Positions 1 through 25,578 of a stretch of DNA of 32,715 nt are shown one piece after another. Numbering within the stretch: position 1 is the first letter of the stretch; every line of letters starts with the position of its first letter. Source of the DNA: an uncultured Pseudobdellovibrionaceae bacterium. GTDB taxonomy: Bacteria; Pseudomonadota; Alphaproteobacteria; Micavibrionales; Micavibrionaceae. The stretch is taken from positions 1-32,715 of the forward strand of contig CAYSGL010000001.1 of the NCBI GenBank assembly GCA_964430725.1, given 5' to 3'. Under the pieces are notes generated by a model. That model was not told where the DNA came from. It was given only the letters and a program-made list of their open reading frames with translations, and did not search any database. A program made the position numbers and the translations under genes.

Positions 1-8
1 TGTAGCGC

Positions 9-45
9 GACACATGGTTTGAGTACTCACGACAGATGGTTTGAG
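9..45. repeat. Two direct 15-bp repeats next to the terminal TG; candidate transposase end-binding sites (R1/R2-like)
   Basis: GACACATGGTTTGAG at 9-23 and GACAGATGGTTTGAG at 31-45 match at 14/15 positions and start 22 bp apart (two helical turns). They lie immediately inside the 5'-TG terminus. Confidence 0.6.
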
Positions 46-146
46 AATTAGCAAAAGCTAAAAAACCACCCTGTCGGACGCCCTACCTACCCCCTTTCCA
101 AGTCTAAAAGCCCGGTTTTCCAAGGCGTCAGAATATGAAAACGTCC

Positions 147-971
147 TCAAGCCTTGATCCCCTTTAATTTGACGTTGCTAATCAGCACTTCTCCAACCGG
201 CTTGGCATGGCCTCGGCCGGCCAGCGTATACAGTGTTTTCACTTTATATATATTGAAGCCCTTAAACAATTTTCGCACTTCAGGGCGGTCATTTAAGGAC
301 AAAATGAAGGTGCCTTTAATTCCCTTTAAAAGCTCTGCCATGGCGGTGAATTCGTCCCGGTTGAACAGCCCGTGTCCGTAGTCTCCTTCGTTTCCGTAAT
401 ATGGCGGATCAAGATAAAACAGGGTAGTATCCCGATCGTACCGTCTGATAAATTCCTTATAATCCAGACATTCAATGACCACGCCGGCAAGCCGTTCGTG
501 AACGTCCTCCAGCATGGGGATAAGCTTGGTGATGTTGAAACGGCCACCGCCGGTTACGTCAACGCCGAAATTCTTGCCCGATACTTTGCCACCGAAGGCA
601 AGGCGCTGCAGGTATAGGAATCGTGCCGCACGTTGCAAATCTGTCAGGGTGGTGGGATCTGTGATCGCCAGCCGCTCGAACTCAGCGCGGGTGGTCAGTT
701 TCCAGCGGATCAGCTCAATGAAGGGCAAATAATGGTGCTCCAGCACCCGAAAGAGATTGGCGACGTCCTTGCTGTAGTCATTGATTACTTCGGCTTTCGG
801 TCGGTGGTCGCGGCGCAGAAAAACACCGCCCATCCCGACAAAAGCCTCGCAATAAGTGGCGTGAGGAATGGTGTTGATATGCTGGATGATGGTTTTGGCG
901 AGATAGCGCTTGCCGCCGATATAGGGAGCAACAGGTTTGGTCGGGGTAACGGGTTGGAGAGCAGTTTTCAT
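147..971 (-). CDS. DNA adenine methyltransferase, D12/Dam family
   Basis: 274-aa ORF with the AdoMet motif EAFVGMGGVF (FxGxG) and the catalytic DPPY motif (FYLDPPYY). It is the last gene before the prophage end. Target specificity cannot be read from the sequence. Confidence 0.9.
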   Translation of the reverse strand: MKTALQPVTPTKPVAPYIGGKRYLAKTIIQHINTIPHATYCEAFVGMGGVFLRRDHRPKAEVINDYSKDVANLFRVLEHHYLPFIELIRWKLTTRAEFERLAITDPTTLTDLQRAARFLYLQRLAFGGKVSGKNFGVDVTGGGRFNITKLIPMLEDVHERLAGVVIECLDYKEFIRRYDRDTTLFYLDPPYYGNEGDYGHGLFNRDEFTAMAELLKGIKGTFILSLNDRPEVRKLFKGFNIYKVKTLYTLAGRGHAKPVGEVLISNVKLKGIKA

Positions 972-991
972 GGTAGTTCTTTCGTCTTCAT

Positions 992-1012
992 CCGCCTTCG
1001 CTGGAAGGTCGG
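992..1012 (-). other. Hairpin in the 91-nt spacer upstream of the methylase start
   Basis: CCGCCTTC-GCTG-GAAGG(T)CGG forms 8 bp with one bulge. On the mRNA strand it ends about 20 nt before the ATG at 971. Confidence 0.35.
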
Positions 1013-1062
1013 ATGGCCGTAAGGCCGGTTAATATTGATAAGCCCCACGTTTTCAATGCTGG

Positions 1063-1347
1063 TTATGGTGGCATGGATTCGTCCCTTTTAAATGGAGTTA
1101 AAACGTTAGTGAAAAGATCAGGATTTTCAGCTTTATAAACAGCAAAATGTGCATTGCAGTAATGCATATTCTCGGCGATCAAATTAGAATGCTGGTTGCA
1201 AATAGCACGGTCGCAAGTTTTTCCGCCACCGACCGGGTAATCGCAAAGATTGATGCCTACATCTGCGCATTCAGCGCAGTGTGGTCCGAGATTGCCGCGA
1301 ATATGAAACTTATTTCCTTGACTGTCGTATCCGAAATAGCAGGGCAT
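1063..1347 (-). CDS. Cys/His-rich small protein, putative zinc-binding, unknown family
   Basis: 94 aa from the ATG at 1347, with GGGAG 8 nt upstream and a TGATG overlap with the upstream stop. The track ORF begins one codon earlier at TTG 1350. It has 7 Cys plus several His (CAEC, CDRAIC, HYCNAH). The DNA is visibly AT-richer than its neighbours. Confidence 0.7.
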   Translation of the reverse strand: MPCYFGYDSQGNKFHIRGNLGPHCAECADVGINLCDYPVGGGKTCDRAICNQHSNLIAENMHYCNAHFAVYKAENPDLFTNVLTPFKRDESMPP

Positions 1348-2168
1348 CAAGCTATCTCCCGTTCTTGCAGATATTCCGGTAAGGCACGCTTTCCCTGTGG
1401 TCTTTCCTGGTTATACCGTTCAGTGAGGCCTTGTACGGCCGCCGTGATGCGCGGCACGCTGGATTGCTCTTCATCGAAGAAATCTGTGACCATATTTTCA
1501 CCGACCAGCATGATGACCGTGTCCTCATGGATCGGATGATCGGCATGACGGCTATAAAAGCTCGCCAGGACACGGATGTACCCACCGCTGATATATCCTG
1601 CTTCATTGGGATAGGCCGCACGCAATATGCGCAGCGCCCAGATCAGGGCATCATCGCCATGTATCTTCATGGCCGATTTCAGGTTGGCCACAGAGAGCGT
1701 TTCATGCGGCTTCATAATGGTGACCTGCTTGGGATAGCGGGGAATTGAAACACCGGCAATCTCGCAGCATTTATGAAGCCTCACAGCAAGTTCGTCGCCG
1801 GCGGAAACCATAGCGTGATGAATGGCAAGAGCATGCATATTGACGCGCTGGGCATTGATGCCAACGAAAGCACAGGCCTGTGCCCTTGTGCCTTTGATAT
1901 CGAGAACGACGGCCGGAACCTCATCAAGAGGAATCCGGCGCGCGGCCAGGACGCGATGTTGGCCGTCAATCACCCAGTAACCGCCTTCCTCACGGCGCGT
2001 GACGGCGATCGGCAAAAACAAAGCCCAATCGAATTTCTCGGCGATATTTTTAATGACCGCCATGCCGCGCTTTGTGCTGACGGCGCGCTGGTATTTTTCA
2101 TTGATGTGCAGATCGTCGGGCTTGATCCACATCAAAATGGGCTTGGCGCTGGGGGCTTTATTCGTCAT
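1347..2168 (-). CDS. ParB/Srx-fold protein with a DGQHR motif; C-terminal half unassigned
   Basis: 273 aa. The N-terminal segment EKYQR...PIAV...YWVIDGQHRVLAARR matches the ParB/sulfiredoxin-type fold of the DGQHR/DGQQR subgroup. The start overlaps the upstream stop (TAATG). Confidence 0.7.
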   Translation of the reverse strand: MTNKAPSAKPILMWIKPDDLHINEKYQRAVSTKRGMAVIKNIAEKFDWALFLPIAVTRREEGGYWVIDGQHRVLAARRIPLDEVPAVVLDIKGTRAQACAFVGINAQRVNMHALAIHHAMVSAGDELAVRLHKCCEIAGVSIPRYPKQVTIMKPHETLSVANLKSAMKIHGDDALIWALRILRAAYPNEAGYISGGYIRVLASFYSRHADHPIHEDTVIMLVGENMVTDFFDEEQSSVPRITAAVQGLTERYNQERPQGKRALPEYLQEREIA

Positions 2169-2821
2169 TAAAACCCTCCCATAAAGACGGCAATGAACGT
2201 AATTGCCAGAATACCATAACCAAAAAAGCCGGTTAGGAATTCACCGATCGCGGTCGCGTGGTCAAGATAGGGAATGCCACGCCCGCGCTGGTTTGGGTAA
2301 ATTAAATGGCCGATCATATAGGCAGGGGCTTTTGTCAGGCCGGAAAGAGCCAGTACAGCGCCCCAAAGCGGATTGATGAACGACATCATCACGCCGGCGA
2401 TCAATGTGACAGCAAGGCCCGTAATCGCGAGCAACAGCGCATCATACCAATATTGGGGAATCTTGCCGTGTAGCCACAGGATCAAATATTCAAGTTTTTC
2501 CGGTTCGCGGCCGTCATCTGGCTCCTTATTATTTGTCGCCAAATCCATCCCCCCGCCGTGACCGGTGCGCTTGCCGATAAATGCGCCTGCATACGGCAAC
2601 AGAGCAATCGCCCAAACAATCGCCCAAAAGTATTTACGATTTTCTTTTTTCACGCTCAGGACGGTAGCCAGCGTGAGGGCGGCGGGCAGCGAGATCAACA
2701 GGTATGGCAGGGCATAAAGCCACTGGTCCAATCCCCACGGCATCTTTGGCGGCGCTCCGCCGCACATACGCGACAGCCATCCGCCCACAAAAGAAAATGT
2801 AAGGATGATAAGTAATATCAT
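2168..2821 (-). CDS. Polytopic inner-membrane protein, unknown function
   Basis: 217 aa with about six hydrophobic helices and a charged central loop (KEPDDGREPEK). An ATGA overlap couples it to the tail-fibre assembly-like gene. Confidence 0.75.
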   Translation of the reverse strand: MILLIILTFSFVGGWLSRMCGGAPPKMPWGLDQWLYALPYLLISLPAALTLATVLSVKKENRKYFWAIVWAIALLPYAGAFIGKRTGHGGGMDLATNNKEPDDGREPEKLEYLILWLHGKIPQYWYDALLLAITGLAVTLIAGVMMSFINPLWGAVLALSGLTKAPAYMIGHLIYPNQRGRGIPYLDHATAIGEFLTGFFGYGILAITFIAVFMGGF

Positions 2822-3282
2822 GATAAATTCGACAGTTGATTGCGCAATGCAGATATCTGACTTTCCAAGTCATCCAACCAACCGCCATCAATTTCTAGAG
2901 TTGCTTCTCTAATTCGTCGGGCGGTTTGTTGTGACTCCAAATTCTCAATATTCTCAATAATCTCCCGTCGCTGTATCTCTGTTTGTTTCTCTGGTGTAAT
3001 AACCCATGAATTGTTTACCCATTCATGGTCCGTGCTTAAAGGTACAAGATCGGTGTAACCGCTTGGAATGTCTTCATTCTGATGAATTTCTAGTATGCTT
3101 TTATCTTCTTTGCTATATACGGTGCGCATTTCAATGCTCAATATAAAAAGTTTATTTTTCTGTAAGGTCACTTTTTGCCCATTTACGAGTGCTAAAAGGG
3201 CTTCTTTGTATTCTTCATCTGTAATTTCGATAGCACCAGGAAATTCTGTTGTGCTTATTTTGTTGTTTGTTGCAAAGGGCAT
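2818..3282 (-). CDS. Tail fibre assembly/chaperone-like protein
   Basis: 154 aa, directly downstream of the fibre gene in the position of Mu U. It has an acidic, coiled C-terminus and lies in AT-rich DNA. The assignment rests mainly on position. Confidence 0.55.
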   Translation of the reverse strand: MPFATNNKISTTEFPGAIEITDEEYKEALLALVNGQKVTLQKNKLFILSIEMRTVYSKEDKSILEIHQNEDIPSGYTDLVPLSTDHEWVNNSWVITPEKQTEIQRREIIENIENLESQQTARRIREATLEIDGGWLDDLESQISALRNQLSNLS

Positions 3283-3283
3283 T

Positions 3284-4030
3284 TTATACGATCCTCATGT
3301 AAAAAGTTGCTGAAATGTTTTTGCTTCTTGTTTCACCTTCTGTGGTTTCAGAAACGCGCGCGTTCGGTGAGTTTGCTGAATTAAAATCAAGCGCTCTTGT
3401 GCCACCAGTGGATTGCGAGATAGCCCATCCATCAGGAAAAGCTGCTACAACATCCGACAGCGCGCCTGATGCTGAAACGGCACCGCCCGTGCCTACGTTT
3501 GAGCGGAATCTACCTGTTATTCTTTGCATTTGATCAAACTGATGCTCACCACTTGTGCCTCTAGCTCGAAGGAATGCTTCCATCGTATTGAGAAGATATA
3601 TATTTTCTCCGGCCAGCGGACCTATAGAAATTTCTGCGGTGGCAATGATTAAAGGAGAAGCGCCTGTAATGGATTCGTTGATAAGTAATCCTTCATTGTA
3701 CTCACCATCACCTGTCAGACCTGCAGTGAGCTTTATATATTTTTTTGATCCACTATTGCTTGGGGCAACAACGCCATCTAAATGATCCCAAAGGGCGAAC
3801 GGCTCGCCGATTCTCTTATGTCCTGATAGGATTTCTATCGCATCGATAAGTTGCGTAAGATTGTTTTCATCTGGCGATAGCCCTGCAGCAGTGATAGCTG
3901 AAACAATTTCACGCATTGGGTGCTCGATTGCGGCGGCTGGCACTGCCGAGCCTTCTGTGCCAGTACCGGGGTTTCCGTCAACATAAGGGTCGTTAGGATC
4001 GGCCGCGCCGATGGGGGCGATATATTTCAT
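3284..4030 (-). CDS. Tail fibre protein
   Basis: 248 aa. The N-terminus (DPNDPYVDGNPGTGTEGSAVPAAAIEHPMREIV) is typical of fibre baseplate-attachment regions. The C-terminus (GEHQF...ETRSKNISATFYMRIV) resembles a tail-collar-type receptor domain. Confidence 0.75.
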   Translation of the reverse strand: MKYIAPIGAADPNDPYVDGNPGTGTEGSAVPAAAIEHPMREIVSAITAAGLSPDENNLTQLIDAIEILSGHKRIGEPFALWDHLDGVVAPSNSGSKKYIKLTAGLTGDGEYNEGLLINESITGASPLIIATAEISIGPLAGENIYLLNTMEAFLRARGTSGEHQFDQMQRITGRFRSNVGTGGAVSASGALSDVVAAFPDGWAISQSTGGTRALDFNSANSPNARVSETTEGETRSKNISATFYMRIV

Positions 4031-23358: not shown

Positions 23359-23658
23359 TCACACTCCGATTGAAGGCTTTTTAATACCTTCAACCTGGAT
23401 AATGCCCTCGGCGCACTCTACGCCGCGCCGGGTGATGGTGCAGACCTGCACATCTCCAAACCATTCATCAATGATCAAACCCTGATTGATCAAGAACCGG
23501 ATATCTTCACGAATGGTCGCGCGCGGCAGGCGGCGATGCCCCAGCAGCTCCAACCCGTTTTGCAGCACGCTCTCGTTGGCCGTGCCGCCGCTTTCCTTGA
23601 GCAGCCGGAGCATGCAAAGGCGGCGATCTTGCGCCAGGTGAGACTGGTAGTTGCTCAT
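23359..23658 (-). CDS. Small winged-helix-like protein (in the position of Mu gp26)
   Basis: 99 aa. LCMLRLLKESGGTANESVLQNGLELLG...IREDIRFLINQGLI looks like a wHTH. Confidence 0.7.
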   Translation of the reverse strand: MSNYQSHLAQDRRLCMLRLLKESGGTANESVLQNGLELLGHRRLPRATIREDIRFLINQGLIIDEWFGDVQVCTITRRGVECAEGIIQVEGIKKPSIGV

Positions 23659-24062
23659 TTTCCCCTCTCCCGAAGATACTCATCAATGACATCGACTTGC
23701 TTTTGCAGGCGTTCCGTAATCCCTTTTTGCGATTCAAAACGAACCGCCGCCGCATCAAGGCTGCCCTGTAGTTTCGTTATCTGAATGGACAGATCGTGAA
23801 TGTCCTTGGCGTTGGGCATATCTGCCATGGCATCTTTGAGATATTTCACCTCACGCGCCAGGCTTGCCAGGACGCCTTCCGTTGCCTCTACGCGCTTGGC
23901 AAGGCCGGAGTGATTGCCATCAATACGTTTGACTGTCTCATCGTGATCGGTGCGCAGCACGAATTTGCTGGCGAAAGCCAGAACGAACAGGGCGCATATC
24001 CCTTGCAGAATAAACAGGATGGCACTGGCATAAGGAGATACGGCTTTAAGAAGGTCGATCAT
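23655..24062 (-). CDS. N-terminal TM plus coiled-coil protein (DUF2730-like); i-spanin-like or Mu gp25-like lysis accessory
   Basis: 135 aa with one TM helix (ASAILFILQGICALFVLAFASKFVL) followed by about 100 aa that look coiled. It has an ATGA overlap with the lipoprotein gene. Confidence 0.7.
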   Translation of the reverse strand: MIDLLKAVSPYASAILFILQGICALFVLAFASKFVLRTDHDETVKRIDGNHSGLAKRVEATEGVLASLAREVKYLKDAMADMPNAKDIHDLSIQITKLQGSLDAAAVRFESQKGITERLQKQVDVIDEYLRERGK

Positions 24063-24370
24063 TGGGCGGCCTCAAGTTGAAGTTTCAGTCTAAACAGGCG
24101 TTGATGCCATTCATCGATCGCGGGGCAGCTCGATATTTCAGTCCCATCGGCAGCGATTGTAATGGGGCAAACCTTGTCCAGTTCGTTTGCTACGGCCGCG
24201 CCTGCTTTTGGCCAGGGTGGGATAGCGCAGGATATGGAGGATTCCTGTTTTTCCGATGCATCAAAGCCGGTCGTTGCGCATGCGCTCACGCACAGAAGAA
24301 GGGCGCTCAGGAGAGCCAGCCGAAATATCGAGCTGCTTTGTCTTTGATTTGTTGGCTTTCTCAAGAGCAT
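24059..24370 (-). CDS. Outer-membrane lipoprotein, o-spanin candidate
   Basis: 103 aa with a signal peptide and a lipobox (LLLCVSAC, with Cys following VSA). The mature part contains further Cys residues. Confidence 0.65.
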   Translation of the reverse strand: MLLRKPTNQRQSSSIFRLALLSALLLCVSACATTGFDASEKQESSISCAIPPWPKAGAAVANELDKVCPITIAADGTEISSCPAIDEWHQRLFRLKLQLEAAQ

Positions 24371-24491
24371 TTTTCTCAGTTTCGATACGGGTTGAACGGC
24401 GGATATAAAAGGCGGCTAAAAGATATTTAAATCCATCGATAATCTTGATCAGCAGCCCTTGCAGGTTACTGAGGATCGTTGCGAGGGACAC
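24261..24491 (-). CDS. Doubtful 76-aa ORF overlapping the holin 3' end and the lipoprotein 5' end
   Basis: The overlapped arrangement recalls Rz/Rz1. However, the N-terminus is only weakly hydrophobic and the protein is short for an i-spanin. Confidence 0.3.
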   Translation of the reverse strand: MSLATILSNLQGLLIKIIDGFKYLLAAFYIRRSTRIETEKNALEKANKSKTKQLDISAGSPERPSSVRERMRNDRL

Positions 24492-24954
24492 TGGCGCTCT
24501 CCTCTTTGGGGATCATGCGGGAGACGATCATTTCCGCCAGATCATAGGCGGTGATGCCGAAATGCTCCAGTGCATCGGGAACGCGTTTGATGATGTAATT
24601 CAAGGCAACGGCGATAATCTCGCTTTTCACTTCCGGATTTTTTATATCCTTGGATTTTTCGAGCGCTTTGTTTTCGGCATACTGCAAACCCGCTTTAATC
24701 GCAGTTTCAAGATAGGTGCGAATAGAGTCATCGATCTTGAGTTTATCGAGCGTGTCCTTGTTCTTTGCCCAGAGCGCTGAAATAACGAACGCCACAACCG
24801 CGCCGATCAATGCGAACAGAAAGCTGATGATCGGATCGATCGCCTGTTGAATGTCGATTGAATAAACCGGAATGGTTTCGACCGCAAAAGCTGGCAGCGC
24901 AAAGAAGGTCGCCGCCAGCATGACTGAAATGATAAAAAAGACGCCGTTTTTCAT
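24466..24954 (-). CDS. Holin-like membrane protein
   Basis: 162 aa with two N-terminal hydrophobic helices (the first resembles a signal peptide, ending AFA) and a charged C-terminal domain. It lies immediately downstream of the endolysin. Confidence 0.6.
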   Translation of the reverse strand: MKNGVFFIISVMLAATFFALPAFAVETIPVYSIDIQQAIDPIISFLFALIGAVVAFVISALWAKNKDTLDKLKIDDSIRTYLETAIKAGLQYAENKALEKSKDIKNPEVKSEIIAVALNYIIKRVPDALEHFGITAYDLAEMIVSRMIPKEESASVPRNDPQ

Positions 24955-24966
24955 GGGATTTTCCTT

Positions 24967-25578
24967 TCACGAGTAAGCCCGATTGAGCCAGCCTTTAAGA
25001 TATTTGCGCGAGGCTGGACGACGCGCTGCCAATTGGCGGTAGAATCCGGCCGCTTCCGATCGCAAGGCGGCCAGAAGAGCGGGCGTATAGCTTTTGTTGG
25101 ATAAAGAGATGGTTTGCTGTCCTATAATCCCGTCTTCGGATACCGCTTCCTTGGTGACAGCGCGCAACGCACGCTGAAGAAGAATGTGGGCCTGCTTTGG
25201 CCCCATGTTCACGCCAAAATCGAAAACTTTCATCGCAATGGCAGGTGCCAGAGCCTCATAGGGATAAGGGTCCCAAAAACGCAGGCGGTAGATACGGATG
25301 GCATCCTCGGCCTTAATGCGGCGCATATCGCGCTCGTCAATCAATCCGTCCTTGTTCAGATCGAGGTCAAGTTCCCCGTCACCATCGAGATCACCCAATT
25401 CTTTGGCCAGGCGCAGTGAAATGCCATTTTTTGTAGCGCCTCCGGGATCGTCAGGATCGTTCGACCATAATCCTTCATGTTGCAAGGTGATTTTGATCGC
25501 CTGATCGAAAACAGAGTTTTCGGTCGGCGGCAATGTTTCGAAGCGCTTGGGCTTGCTGTCTTTCCCCCAGTTCGTCAT
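24967..25578 (-). CDS. Endolysin, GH108-type lysozyme domain with a C-terminal peptidoglycan-binding-like region
   Basis: 203 aa. HEGLWSNDPDDPGGATKNGIS matches the GH108 catalytic motif (EGG..DP.D.GG.T..GI), and the C-terminus reads YLKGWLNRAYS. There is no signal or SAR sequence. The ATG has no SD. Confidence 0.85.
   Translation of the reverse strand: MTNWGKDSKPKRFETLPPTENSVFDQAIKITLQHEGLWSNDPDDPGGATKNGISLRLAKELGDLDGDGELDLDLNKDGLIDERDMRRIKAEDAIRIYRLRFWDPYPYEALAPAIAMKVFDFGVNMGPKQAHILLQRALRAVTKEAVSEDGIIGQQTISLSNKSYTPALLAALRSEAAGFYRQLAARRPASRKYLKGWLNRAYS

Follow-up and report, generated by a model that had tools for sequence, protein, structure and literature searches.

Right end of an uncultured Mu-like phage with four probably independent accessory genes, the last of them an adenine methylase plausibly taking the role of mom

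We analyzed a stretch of 32,715 nucleotides (nt) from an uncultured Pseudobdellovibrionaceae bacterium (assembly GCA_964430725.1, contig CAYSGL010000001.1, positions 1 to 32,715), hereafter called the window, and in particular its first 2821 positions, where four minus-strand genes are located. In the order of reading, they encode an integral membrane protein of 217 amino acids (aa), a ParB-like protein of 273 aa, a Cys/His-rich protein of 94 aa, and a D12-class (Dam-family) N6-adenine DNA methyltransferase of 274 aa (Table 1). A first-pass annotation, made from the sequence alone, had described these four reading frames, the start–stop overlaps coupling the first three of them to the late operon and to one another, and the 91-nt spacer in front of the methylase gene; all of this was confirmed. 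It had also grouped the genes into one cassette, and this grouping did not survive the comparison with other genomes. Our analysis indicates that a Mu-like transposable phage probably has its accessory right end at positions 1-2821 and that these positions carry four functionally independent genes, not a single system.

Table 1. Features of the window and copies of the RNA leader in related loci
Feature	Coordinates	Strand	Description
Phage right end	1-50	(-)	Two direct repeats and terminal sequence CGCGCTACA; terminus aligned with L008 and L010
Terminal direct repeats	45-30 and 23-8		16 nt each
Terminator-like hairpin and T-run	67-80	(-)	3' of the methylase gene; consensus scan only
D12-class (Dam-family) N6-adenine DNA methyltransferase	147-971	(-)	274 aa; PF02086, phrog_56; last gene before the right end
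Spacer	972-1062	(-)	91 nt; 3' part (1030-984) with hairpins 1 and 2 is a remnant of a structured leader of ~105 nt
Leader remnant	984-1030	(-)
Hairpin 1	1026-1015		GGCC-TTAC-GGCC
Hairpin 2 (bulged)	1015-989		CATCCG-A-CCTTC-CAGC-GAAGG-CGGATG; 17 nt to the methylase ATG
Cys/His-rich protein	1063-1347	(-)	94 aa; ATG at 1347 within TGATG (1349-1345), overlapping the stop of the ParB-like gene
Orphan ParB-CTPase-fold protein, DUF6551 type	1347-2168	(-)	273 aa; start at TAATG 2170-2166; phrog_1033 at 5e-23
Integral membrane protein	2168-2821	(-)	217 aa; six transmembrane helices; start overlaps the stop of the tail-fibre assembly gene (ATGA 2821-2818)
Tail-fibre assembly gene	2818-3282	(-)	Last structural gene; phrog_3916 at 3.8e-18; membrane gene coupled to it
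135-aa protein	23655-24062		N-terminal transmembrane segment and coiled coil
103-aa lipoprotein-like protein	24059-24370		LLLCVSAC motif
162-aa protein	24466-24954		Two hydrophobic segments; holin candidate
Endolysin	24967-25578		phrog_315; no signal sequence
Leader copy	L008:6633-6759
Leader copy	L010:6839-6964
Leader copy	L043:9698-9824
Leader copy	L318:5882-6008
Leader copy	L294:6876-7003
Leader copy	L298:6869-6997
Leader copy	L310:6866-6994
Leader copy	L282:3898-4024

The right end of the phage coincides exactly with position 1 of the window. The related loci L008 and L010 have the same terminus, and their flanking DNA, which follows directly after GCGCTACA (minus strand), is unrelated. 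Read on the minus strand, the terminus is ...CTCAAACCATCTGTCG-TGAGTA-CTCAAACCATGTGTCG-CGCTACA, with two 16-nt direct repeats of the form CTCAAACCAT(C/G)TGTCG, which, by analogy with the ends of Mu, are presumed to be transposase-binding sites. The methylase gene stops 146 nt from the conserved terminus GCGCTACA. Since the window starts at the phage right end, the methylase gene is the terminal gene and stands at the place of mom in Mu, and the first-pass description of this region as the mom-equivalent end was correct.

The methylase matched PF02086 over the full model (E = 1.1e-27; 97.8 bits at a cut-off of 22) and phrog_56 at 7e-85; its best PDB sequence matches were DpnM and EcoDam. It remained under the cut-off of the NCBIfam dam model for the GATC-specific subfamily (TIGR00571, 90.2 versus 114.85 bits). 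Motif I, FVGMG (FxGxG), is located N-terminal to motif IV, DPPY, and both had been read correctly in the first pass. Within this phage lineage, this terminal gene is conserved: its identity was 82-84% in L008 and L010, while that of the membrane and ParB genes was 58-62% there. In IMG/VR, 33 contigs, mostly of 36-42 kb, carried homologues with 53-69% identity at or close to an end, and all 33 were devoid of the other three genes. Three cultured Mu-like phages, RR1-B, Aussie, and StopSmel, have homologues with 55-61% identity at or beside their right end; the homologue is the last gene in the Rhizobium phage RR1-B and the second to last in the Sinorhizobium phage Aussie (StopSmel is also a Sinorhizobium phage). 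Neither Haemophilus nor Neisseria was among the organisms listed for the methylase matches at E <= 1e-20.

Replacement of mom by an adenine methylase is already known in Mu-like prophages. The enzymes Hin1523, Nma1821, and Hia5, encoded at the mom position, have next to no sequence preference when methylating adenine, and they block a large number of restriction enzymes, thus giving broad protection (PMC3299994). The methylase of the window can be likened to them by family (Dam-related, ~280 aa), by the FxGxG and DPPY motifs, and by position, the Hia5 type and our enzyme both being syntenic with mom in Mu-like elements (PMC3299994). The differences are that its closest cultured relatives belong to the three alphaproteobacterial phages named above, and that hia5 is preceded by a Com homologue (PMC3299994), whereas the lineage of the window has an RNA leader instead.

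With com-mom of Mu itself, the methylase gene shares its location as the terminal right-end gene after the tail fibres, a late function, RNA hairpins just upstream of the start codon, and a DNA-adenine-modifying product that would shield phage DNA from restriction. However, Mom of Mu makes acetamidoadenine, whereas the enzyme of the window is a D12 methyltransferase; no homologue of Com is encoded in the window, and its relatives have a cloverleaf-like RNA leader, of which the window retains the 3' remnant only. The gin invertase and the invertible tail-fibre segment of Mu are absent from the window as well. The last gene is a Dam-family methylase plausibly doing the job of mom: most likely it methylates adenine in replicating phage DNA late in infection, and the packaged genomes, methylated in this way, would resist restriction in the next host. 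This places the phage in the known pattern of Mu-like phages with an adenine methylase instead of mom, a pattern that now also takes in uncultured Mu-like phages related most closely, among cultured ones, to phages of alphaproteobacteria.

The four genes are independently inherited. Co-occurrence was analyzed by tblastn with the window's own proteins, and a related D12 methylase was counted if it lay within 6 kb. Among 80 viral loci with a homologue of the ParB-like protein, one had a related D12 methylase and none had the membrane or the Cys/His-rich gene. The Cys/His-rich gene was found at 37 loci, accompanied by a related D12 methylase at one of them and by neither the membrane gene nor the ParB-like gene at any. 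For the membrane gene (35 loci), a related D12 methylase was present in four cases, all Mu-like, a ParB-like gene in two, both from one phage (L008/L009), and the Cys/His-rich gene in none. Even the commonest neighbour family occurred at no more than 8 of 62 ParB loci and no more than 5 of 24 Cys loci. Absence of co-occurrence in other genomes had been named in the first pass as an outcome that would refute its cassette, and this is what was observed.

The stretch from the membrane gene to the methylase gene is a cargo hotspot between conserved genes, not a conserved cassette. In seven genomes, including the window, the slot 3' of the membrane gene was filled with different cargo, the small proteins being dissimilar to each other, and it ended at the methylase in all of them except L011, whose contig stops first. 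The cargo consisted of the ParB-like and Cys/His-rich proteins in the window; a ParB-like protein and an unrelated 93-aa protein with a weak ASCH (PUA-like) match (L008:6349-6630; E 0.006, below the cut-off), in place of the Cys protein, in L008, which among the relatives with this gene order is the closest; a single protein of 68 aa in L010 and of 71 aa in L318; three proteins of 71, 108, and 71 aa in L317; a lipase-like protein of 535 aa with a protein of 798 aa in L043; and a SASA-esterase of 747 aa with a protein of 330 aa in L011. The ParB-like and Cys/His-rich genes are read here as sporadic cargo of a variable slot, neither of them tied to the methylase, and the stretch is marked as an exchange site for orphan ParB-CTPase proteins and other accessory genes.

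For the 273-aa protein, the first-pass annotation had proposed a nucleoside triphosphate (NTP)-binding domain of the ParB/Srx fold on the basis of the motifs YQR and VIDGQHRV. Both motifs were found, and the fold assignment was supported by structure and profile comparisons. The YQR...DGQHR P-motif is followed by an INAQR box-III-like motif and then by a helical ParB-like domain; Y26, Q27, R28, D68, G69, Q70, H71, R72, and N105 are invariant in the family. In a Foldseek search, the AlphaFold2 model (predicted local distance difference test score, pLDDT, 91.2) matched ParB, Noc, and KorB at a probability of 1.0 over 220-250 columns, with sulfiredoxin also at 1.0, and the family profile retrieved Noc and ParB from the PDB at E 5e-5. 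As a match of 220-250 columns covers the NTP-binding domain together with the helical DNA-binding region, the C-terminal half is also ParB-like, although its ~150 residues had been reported as unrecognized. The protein itself scored just under the cut-offs of Pfam ParB_N (23.8 versus 26.3 bits) and DUF6551 (PF20188; 20.2 versus 26.8 bits), while homologues with 46-60% identity carry PF20188 in precomputed annotation.

Phage proteins of the ParB-CTPase/DUF6551 type bind CTP or ATP in vitro, as found for the members tested (bioRxiv 10.1101/2025.10.10.680097). With these orphan proteins, the protein of the window shares the N-terminal NTP-binding fold of ParB, the intact arginine of the P-motif, the DUF6551-type continuation, a phage- or integrative and conjugative element (ICE)-borne location, and the lack of a ParA partner; it differs from them in falling just under both Pfam cut-offs. 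By analogy with them, it would bind NTP and is probably an NTP-gated DNA-binding switch. It is unusual in closing a late operon, since homologues lie mostly in early or replication regions, such as those of Paracoccus phage Shpa and Microcystis phages. Other homologues were found in ICE-like regions with a coupling protein of the type IV secretion system and, in one case, at a prophage end beside flagellar genes. A second ParB-like protein of 595 aa was encoded just upstream of a distant homologue at 8 of 62 ParB loci; the loci with recurrent neighbours of ParB homologues are L056 with seven others and L063 with seven others.

The start of the gene for the 94-aa protein was placed one codon earlier, at TTG, by the program listing the open reading frames; ATG at 1347 is supported because all homologues of the protein begin with MPCY. 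Residues H23, C24, C27, C35, C45, C50, H53, H62, C64, and H67 are invariant in the family, and these ten residues, six Cys and four His, could make up two zinc sites; judging by these residues, it is probably a zinc-binding protein. It matched phrog_13747 (unknown function), while no Pfam family at E <= 0.1 and no PDB relative, including by profile search, were found. Homologues were present in 37 viral contigs with no constant neighbour; Pseudomonas phage PARCL1pr and Burkholderia phage Bcep22 also encode one each in their early regions. The gene is AT-richer than its surroundings, as noted in the first pass, with a G+C content of 0.43 at 1051-1350 compared to ~0.54 in its neighbours.

The first-pass annotation had offered two ways of reading the four genes as one system. 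According to one of them, they form a mom-like modification module, where the ParB-like and Cys proteins act on the methylase as regulators or guides; in the more specific form considered here, the former would be loaded onto phage DNA and the latter would be a Com-like zinc-finger translation activator binding the spacer hairpins. The gene order agrees with this proposal, as a Cys-rich gene lies immediately upstream of the hairpins and the methylase in the window, and a gene for the small four-cysteine protein Com precedes the modification gene both in Mu and before hia5 (PMC3299994). However, the 94-aa protein does not behave as Com: it belongs to no Pfam family, its homologues occupy early regions with a methylase at 1 of 37 loci, and it is missing beside the methylase of the relatives. 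The leader hairpins and the methylase are kept in ~20 relatives without the ParB-like and Cys proteins; ParB homologues occur in ICE-like contexts, in early phage regions, and at a prophage end without methylases; and the Cys gene is compositionally foreign, with the 5' half of the conserved leader missing where this gene ends. The module fails the co-occurrence test, and we consider it improbable. The other proposal is a prophage defence or superinfection-exclusion system, where the ParB-like protein would be an NTP switch sensing the DNA of an invader, with the membrane protein as the effector and the methylase protecting self DNA. The DGQHR-type ParB fold is indeed known from DndB and DpdB and, in its DGQQR form, from the defence proteins GmrSD/BrxU (DUF262), and the variable slot between the membrane and methylase genes resembles defence hotspots of other temperate phages. 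Nevertheless, the ParB-like protein scored far below the cut-offs of the DGQHR families (TIGR03187, 19.8 versus 58.85 bits; NF041060, 14.2 versus 300 bits), its second domain is ParB-like and helical, unlike that of DndB, and its neighbours in the window are phage tail, membrane, and methylase genes, with no dnd or dpd genes among them. Search against PADLOC-DB v2 yielded zero matches for the membrane protein, the Cys protein, and the other slot cargo, and for the ParB-like protein, only noise-level ones at E 0.017 (DpdB, 11.9 bits) and 0.041. No nuclease domain is present, as the first pass had itself remarked, nor is any other effector domain, and the membrane family, known from more than 600 clusters, almost always occurs without ParB. 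Translational coupling ties the three genes to the late structural operon, and a consensus scan of positions 1-3400 revealed no sigma-70-like promoter on the minus strand, which makes expression in the prophage unlikely. A defence system, which fails the co-occurrence test too, is therefore very improbable.

Several facts weigh against full independence of the four genes. ParB-CTPase domains of phages are often fused to DNA methylases and to PUA-like/ASCH domains (bioRxiv 10.1101/2025.10.10.680097), and in L008, the ParB-like, ASCH-like, and methylase genes stand in a row, an arrangement that would also fit a modification module. An SNF2-helicase/N6_N4-methylase fusion of ~870 aa was encoded near 8 of 62 ParB loci. 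The tblastn-based count would miss very divergent or non-D12 methylases near ParB homologues. Given the phage ParB-methylase and ParB-PUA fusions and the SNF2-N6_N4 fusion, ParB-like proteins may still be loosely linked in function to DNA modification. The gene row of L008 echoes the two kinds of domain fusion reported for phages. Independent inheritance nonetheless keeps these four adjacent genes from entering the record as a new system of defence or modification. Two new leads emerged at the periphery of the original claim: a covarying RNA leader, truncated in the window, and an unannotated family of membrane proteins.

The first-pass annotation had placed a single hairpin in the spacer; a structure is present there, but it comprises two hairpins (minimum free energy of -20.6 kcal/mol, z = -4.2 against shuffles). 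Alignment of the sequences upstream of the methylase in relatives revealed a conserved element of far greater extent, ~105 nt plus a linker. Its 5' part consists of GGCGGGGG, two hairpins separated by AACC (the first of 7 bp with a CGCTAA-like loop, the second of 5 bp with a loop of 7 nt), and a 12-nt linker; the 3' part contains a GGCC/GGCC hairpin, ATCCCGCC-A-CC, a short hairpin, and GGCGGG, and ends ~20-30 nt before the ATG. RNAalifold, applied to an unguided MAFFT alignment of eight relatives, folded the leader into a four-way junction (cloverleaf-like) closed by GGCGGG/CCCGCC. Of its 29 pairs, 14 showed compensatory changes, and 97% of the cells were paired. The covariation score was 0.409 versus 0.161 in shuffles, none of 500 shuffles reaching 0.409, and it was 0.092 at most when the partners were slid. 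When hairpin 2 was aligned by MAFFT on its own, the alignment did not follow the structure and RNAalifold recovered hairpin 1 only; a covariance model and the full-length leader were used instead. The full covariance model, R2, matched 20 of 39 related loci at E < 1e-4, and in every case, the match ended at the methylase match or no more than ~200 nt upstream of it.

In the window, R2 gave no match, whereas the hairpin model R1 matched positions 984-1018 of the minus strand at E 0.014. The 5' half of the leader is missing here, and the retained part lies 32 nt downstream of the end of the AT-rich small gene, which suggests that acquisition of this gene truncated the leader. The CCCGCC strand of the leader is also able to pair with the downstream GGCGGG, lengthening hairpin 2; as one strand is shared by the upstream and downstream GGCGGG, the two folds are mutually exclusive. 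We infer that the alternative pairing is a cis-regulatory switch, which would limit expression of a potentially harmful methylase, as Com does for mom. The leader precedes a potentially toxic anti-restriction enzyme, and a version of it that is naturally truncated at the 5' side is available for comparison in the window.

Other identities of the leader were considered. ARAGORN detected no tRNA or tmRNA in the window or in 12 related loci, and the reading of the cloverleaf as either of them was rejected. Rfam yielded no match in positions 1-3300 of the window at E <= 1, nor at the leader of six relatives at E <= 0.1. The leader as a binding site of a late activator was dropped, since the motif occurs only once in the window and the stems covary. 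The 14-base pattern GGCCN{3,6}ACGGCCATCC had 120 chance matches in viral contigs and none upstream of a methylase.

The membrane protein was modelled by AlphaFold2 with six transmembrane helices, in agreement with the first-pass estimate of about six, and with a structured loop at 88-122 (pLDDT 92.8; predicted template modelling score 0.89). We failed to find a PDB fold match for this model (best E 0.12, template modelling score <= 0.32; GPCR-like noise), and BFVD returned uncharacterized viral proteins only. Neither Pfam, PHROG, NCBIfam, nor PADLOC assigned a family to the protein, searched alone or as 30 family members, and a sequence-profile search of the PDB with the family also gave no match. 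The family comprises 162 clusters at 90% identity and at least 604 at 50%; tblastn with three members found no homologue among 50,697 records of deposited phage genomes, and the scan of genome contigs found two loci only. Among 87 diverse members, G21, G171, and E194 were invariant and R18, H88, E108, K164, Y168, and T190 were conserved in at least 90%, all of these residues lying on one membrane face. The indications on topology conflict: the family-wide count of K+R favours a cytoplasmic position of the conserved face, while the loop charges of the window's own protein point the opposite way.

The membrane gene directly follows a tail-fibre or assembly gene in seven Mu-like genomes, and it follows tail-fibre or virion proteins in unrelated viral contigs as well. 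At 10 of ~17 non-Mu loci, an endolysin gene lay zero to three genes downstream, the endolysins representing five families (phrog_315, 90, 17001, 465, and 1259/9589). The position directly upstream of an endolysin is the classic one for a holin, and mosaic pairing with endolysins of several families is typical of holins. From this, a late envelope or lysis function can be inferred: the protein, made together with the late tail-fibre genes, would have the cell envelope as its target during lysis and would be a non-canonical holin or a lysis accessory or, less likely, an envelope-modifying enzyme. With holins, it shares late synthesis, location in the membrane, and, in its relatives, a gene directly upstream of several endolysin families; it differs from them in its six helices, its length of 217 aa, its conserved charged and aromatic residues, and its structured 35-residue loop. 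In non-Mu loci, a small protein with a single transmembrane segment was encoded just upstream of the membrane gene (L013:6607-6990, L014:6615-6977, L016:6427-6801, and L012:546-863), being phrog_19911 in two of these cases; it could be a partner, e.g., in a holin/antiholin pair or as a spanin.

For this phage in particular, a lysis role meets with difficulties. A distance of 22 kb separates the membrane gene from the phage's own endolysin gene, beside which a plausible lysis cassette is already encoded, composed of a protein with two hydrophobic segments, a lipoprotein, and a protein with a transmembrane segment and a coiled coil. Six helices with conserved R/H/E/K/Y residues are atypical of holins, and no holin family of Pfam or PHROGs was matched. 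Where lysis genes follow the tail fibres, proximity to an endolysin and location after tail fibres are inseparable. For the distance to the endolysin, the phage's own cassette, and the holin-atypical features, we regard the membrane protein as a lysis factor only tentatively, giving this somewhat less than an even chance. The alternative is that it is not a lysis factor and that it modifies the envelope or masks a receptor in connection with the tail-fibre module, for instance alongside tail proteins of the SGNH/GDSL esterase type acting on surface polysaccharide. In favour of this is the sole association kept in Mu-like and most other contexts, namely the location directly after tail-fibre or assembly genes, together with the conservation of R18, H88, E108, K164, Y168, and E194 in 87 diverse clusters, a compact six-helix fold resembling an enzyme or transporter more than a holin, and the holin candidate already present beside the endolysin. 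Large proteins with domains resembling SGNH, SASA, or GDSL esterases or lipases flank the membrane gene at L011:6809-9052, L043:5636-7243, and L040:1-1233 and may hint at a link with acylation or deacylation of surface polysaccharide. On the other hand, such neighbours occurred at only 3 of ~25 loci, the adjacency to endolysins holds for all five endolysin families, no similarity to known membrane enzymes was detected (Pfam, PDB sequence, and PDB fold), and coupling to the late operon speaks against a role in lysogenic conversion. An envelope-modifying or receptor-masking protein is therefore rather unlikely.

The membrane family is a lead in itself, being large, located at the junction of tail-fibre and lysis genes, and modelled with confidence without a solved relative in the PDB. 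The protein may be an envelope enzyme, or else a lysis factor that resembles a holin and has an enzyme-like conserved site, and in either case a member of a new late-acting class. That both leads amount to new phage functions, the membrane protein representing such a class and the leader a new tRNA-shaped cis-regulatory switch replacing Com, is doubtful in our estimation; if true, the window would be a natural truncation mutant of the leader, with only the downstream hairpin able to form.

As for the rest of the phage, positions 23655-25578 are plausibly its own lysis cassette (Table 1). The 103-aa and 135-aa proteins of this region look like spanins, with their usual order reversed. A late activator (phrog_836) and a small terminase, besides the endolysin, are encoded farther along. 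Upstream of the right end, relatives have the Mu-type baseplate genes gp45, gp46, gp47/J, and gp48, as well as tail-fibre genes. Pseudomonas phage B3 was dropped as a comparator, since its right end has no methylase. The tail fibre of the window is conserved with its relatives in the first ~68 residues alone. Positions 2851-3450, where the C-terminus of the tail fibre and the tail-fibre assembly protein are encoded, are strongly AT-rich (G+C content of 0.36-0.40 versus ~0.52 elsewhere). A host-range module exchanged recently is suggested by these features.

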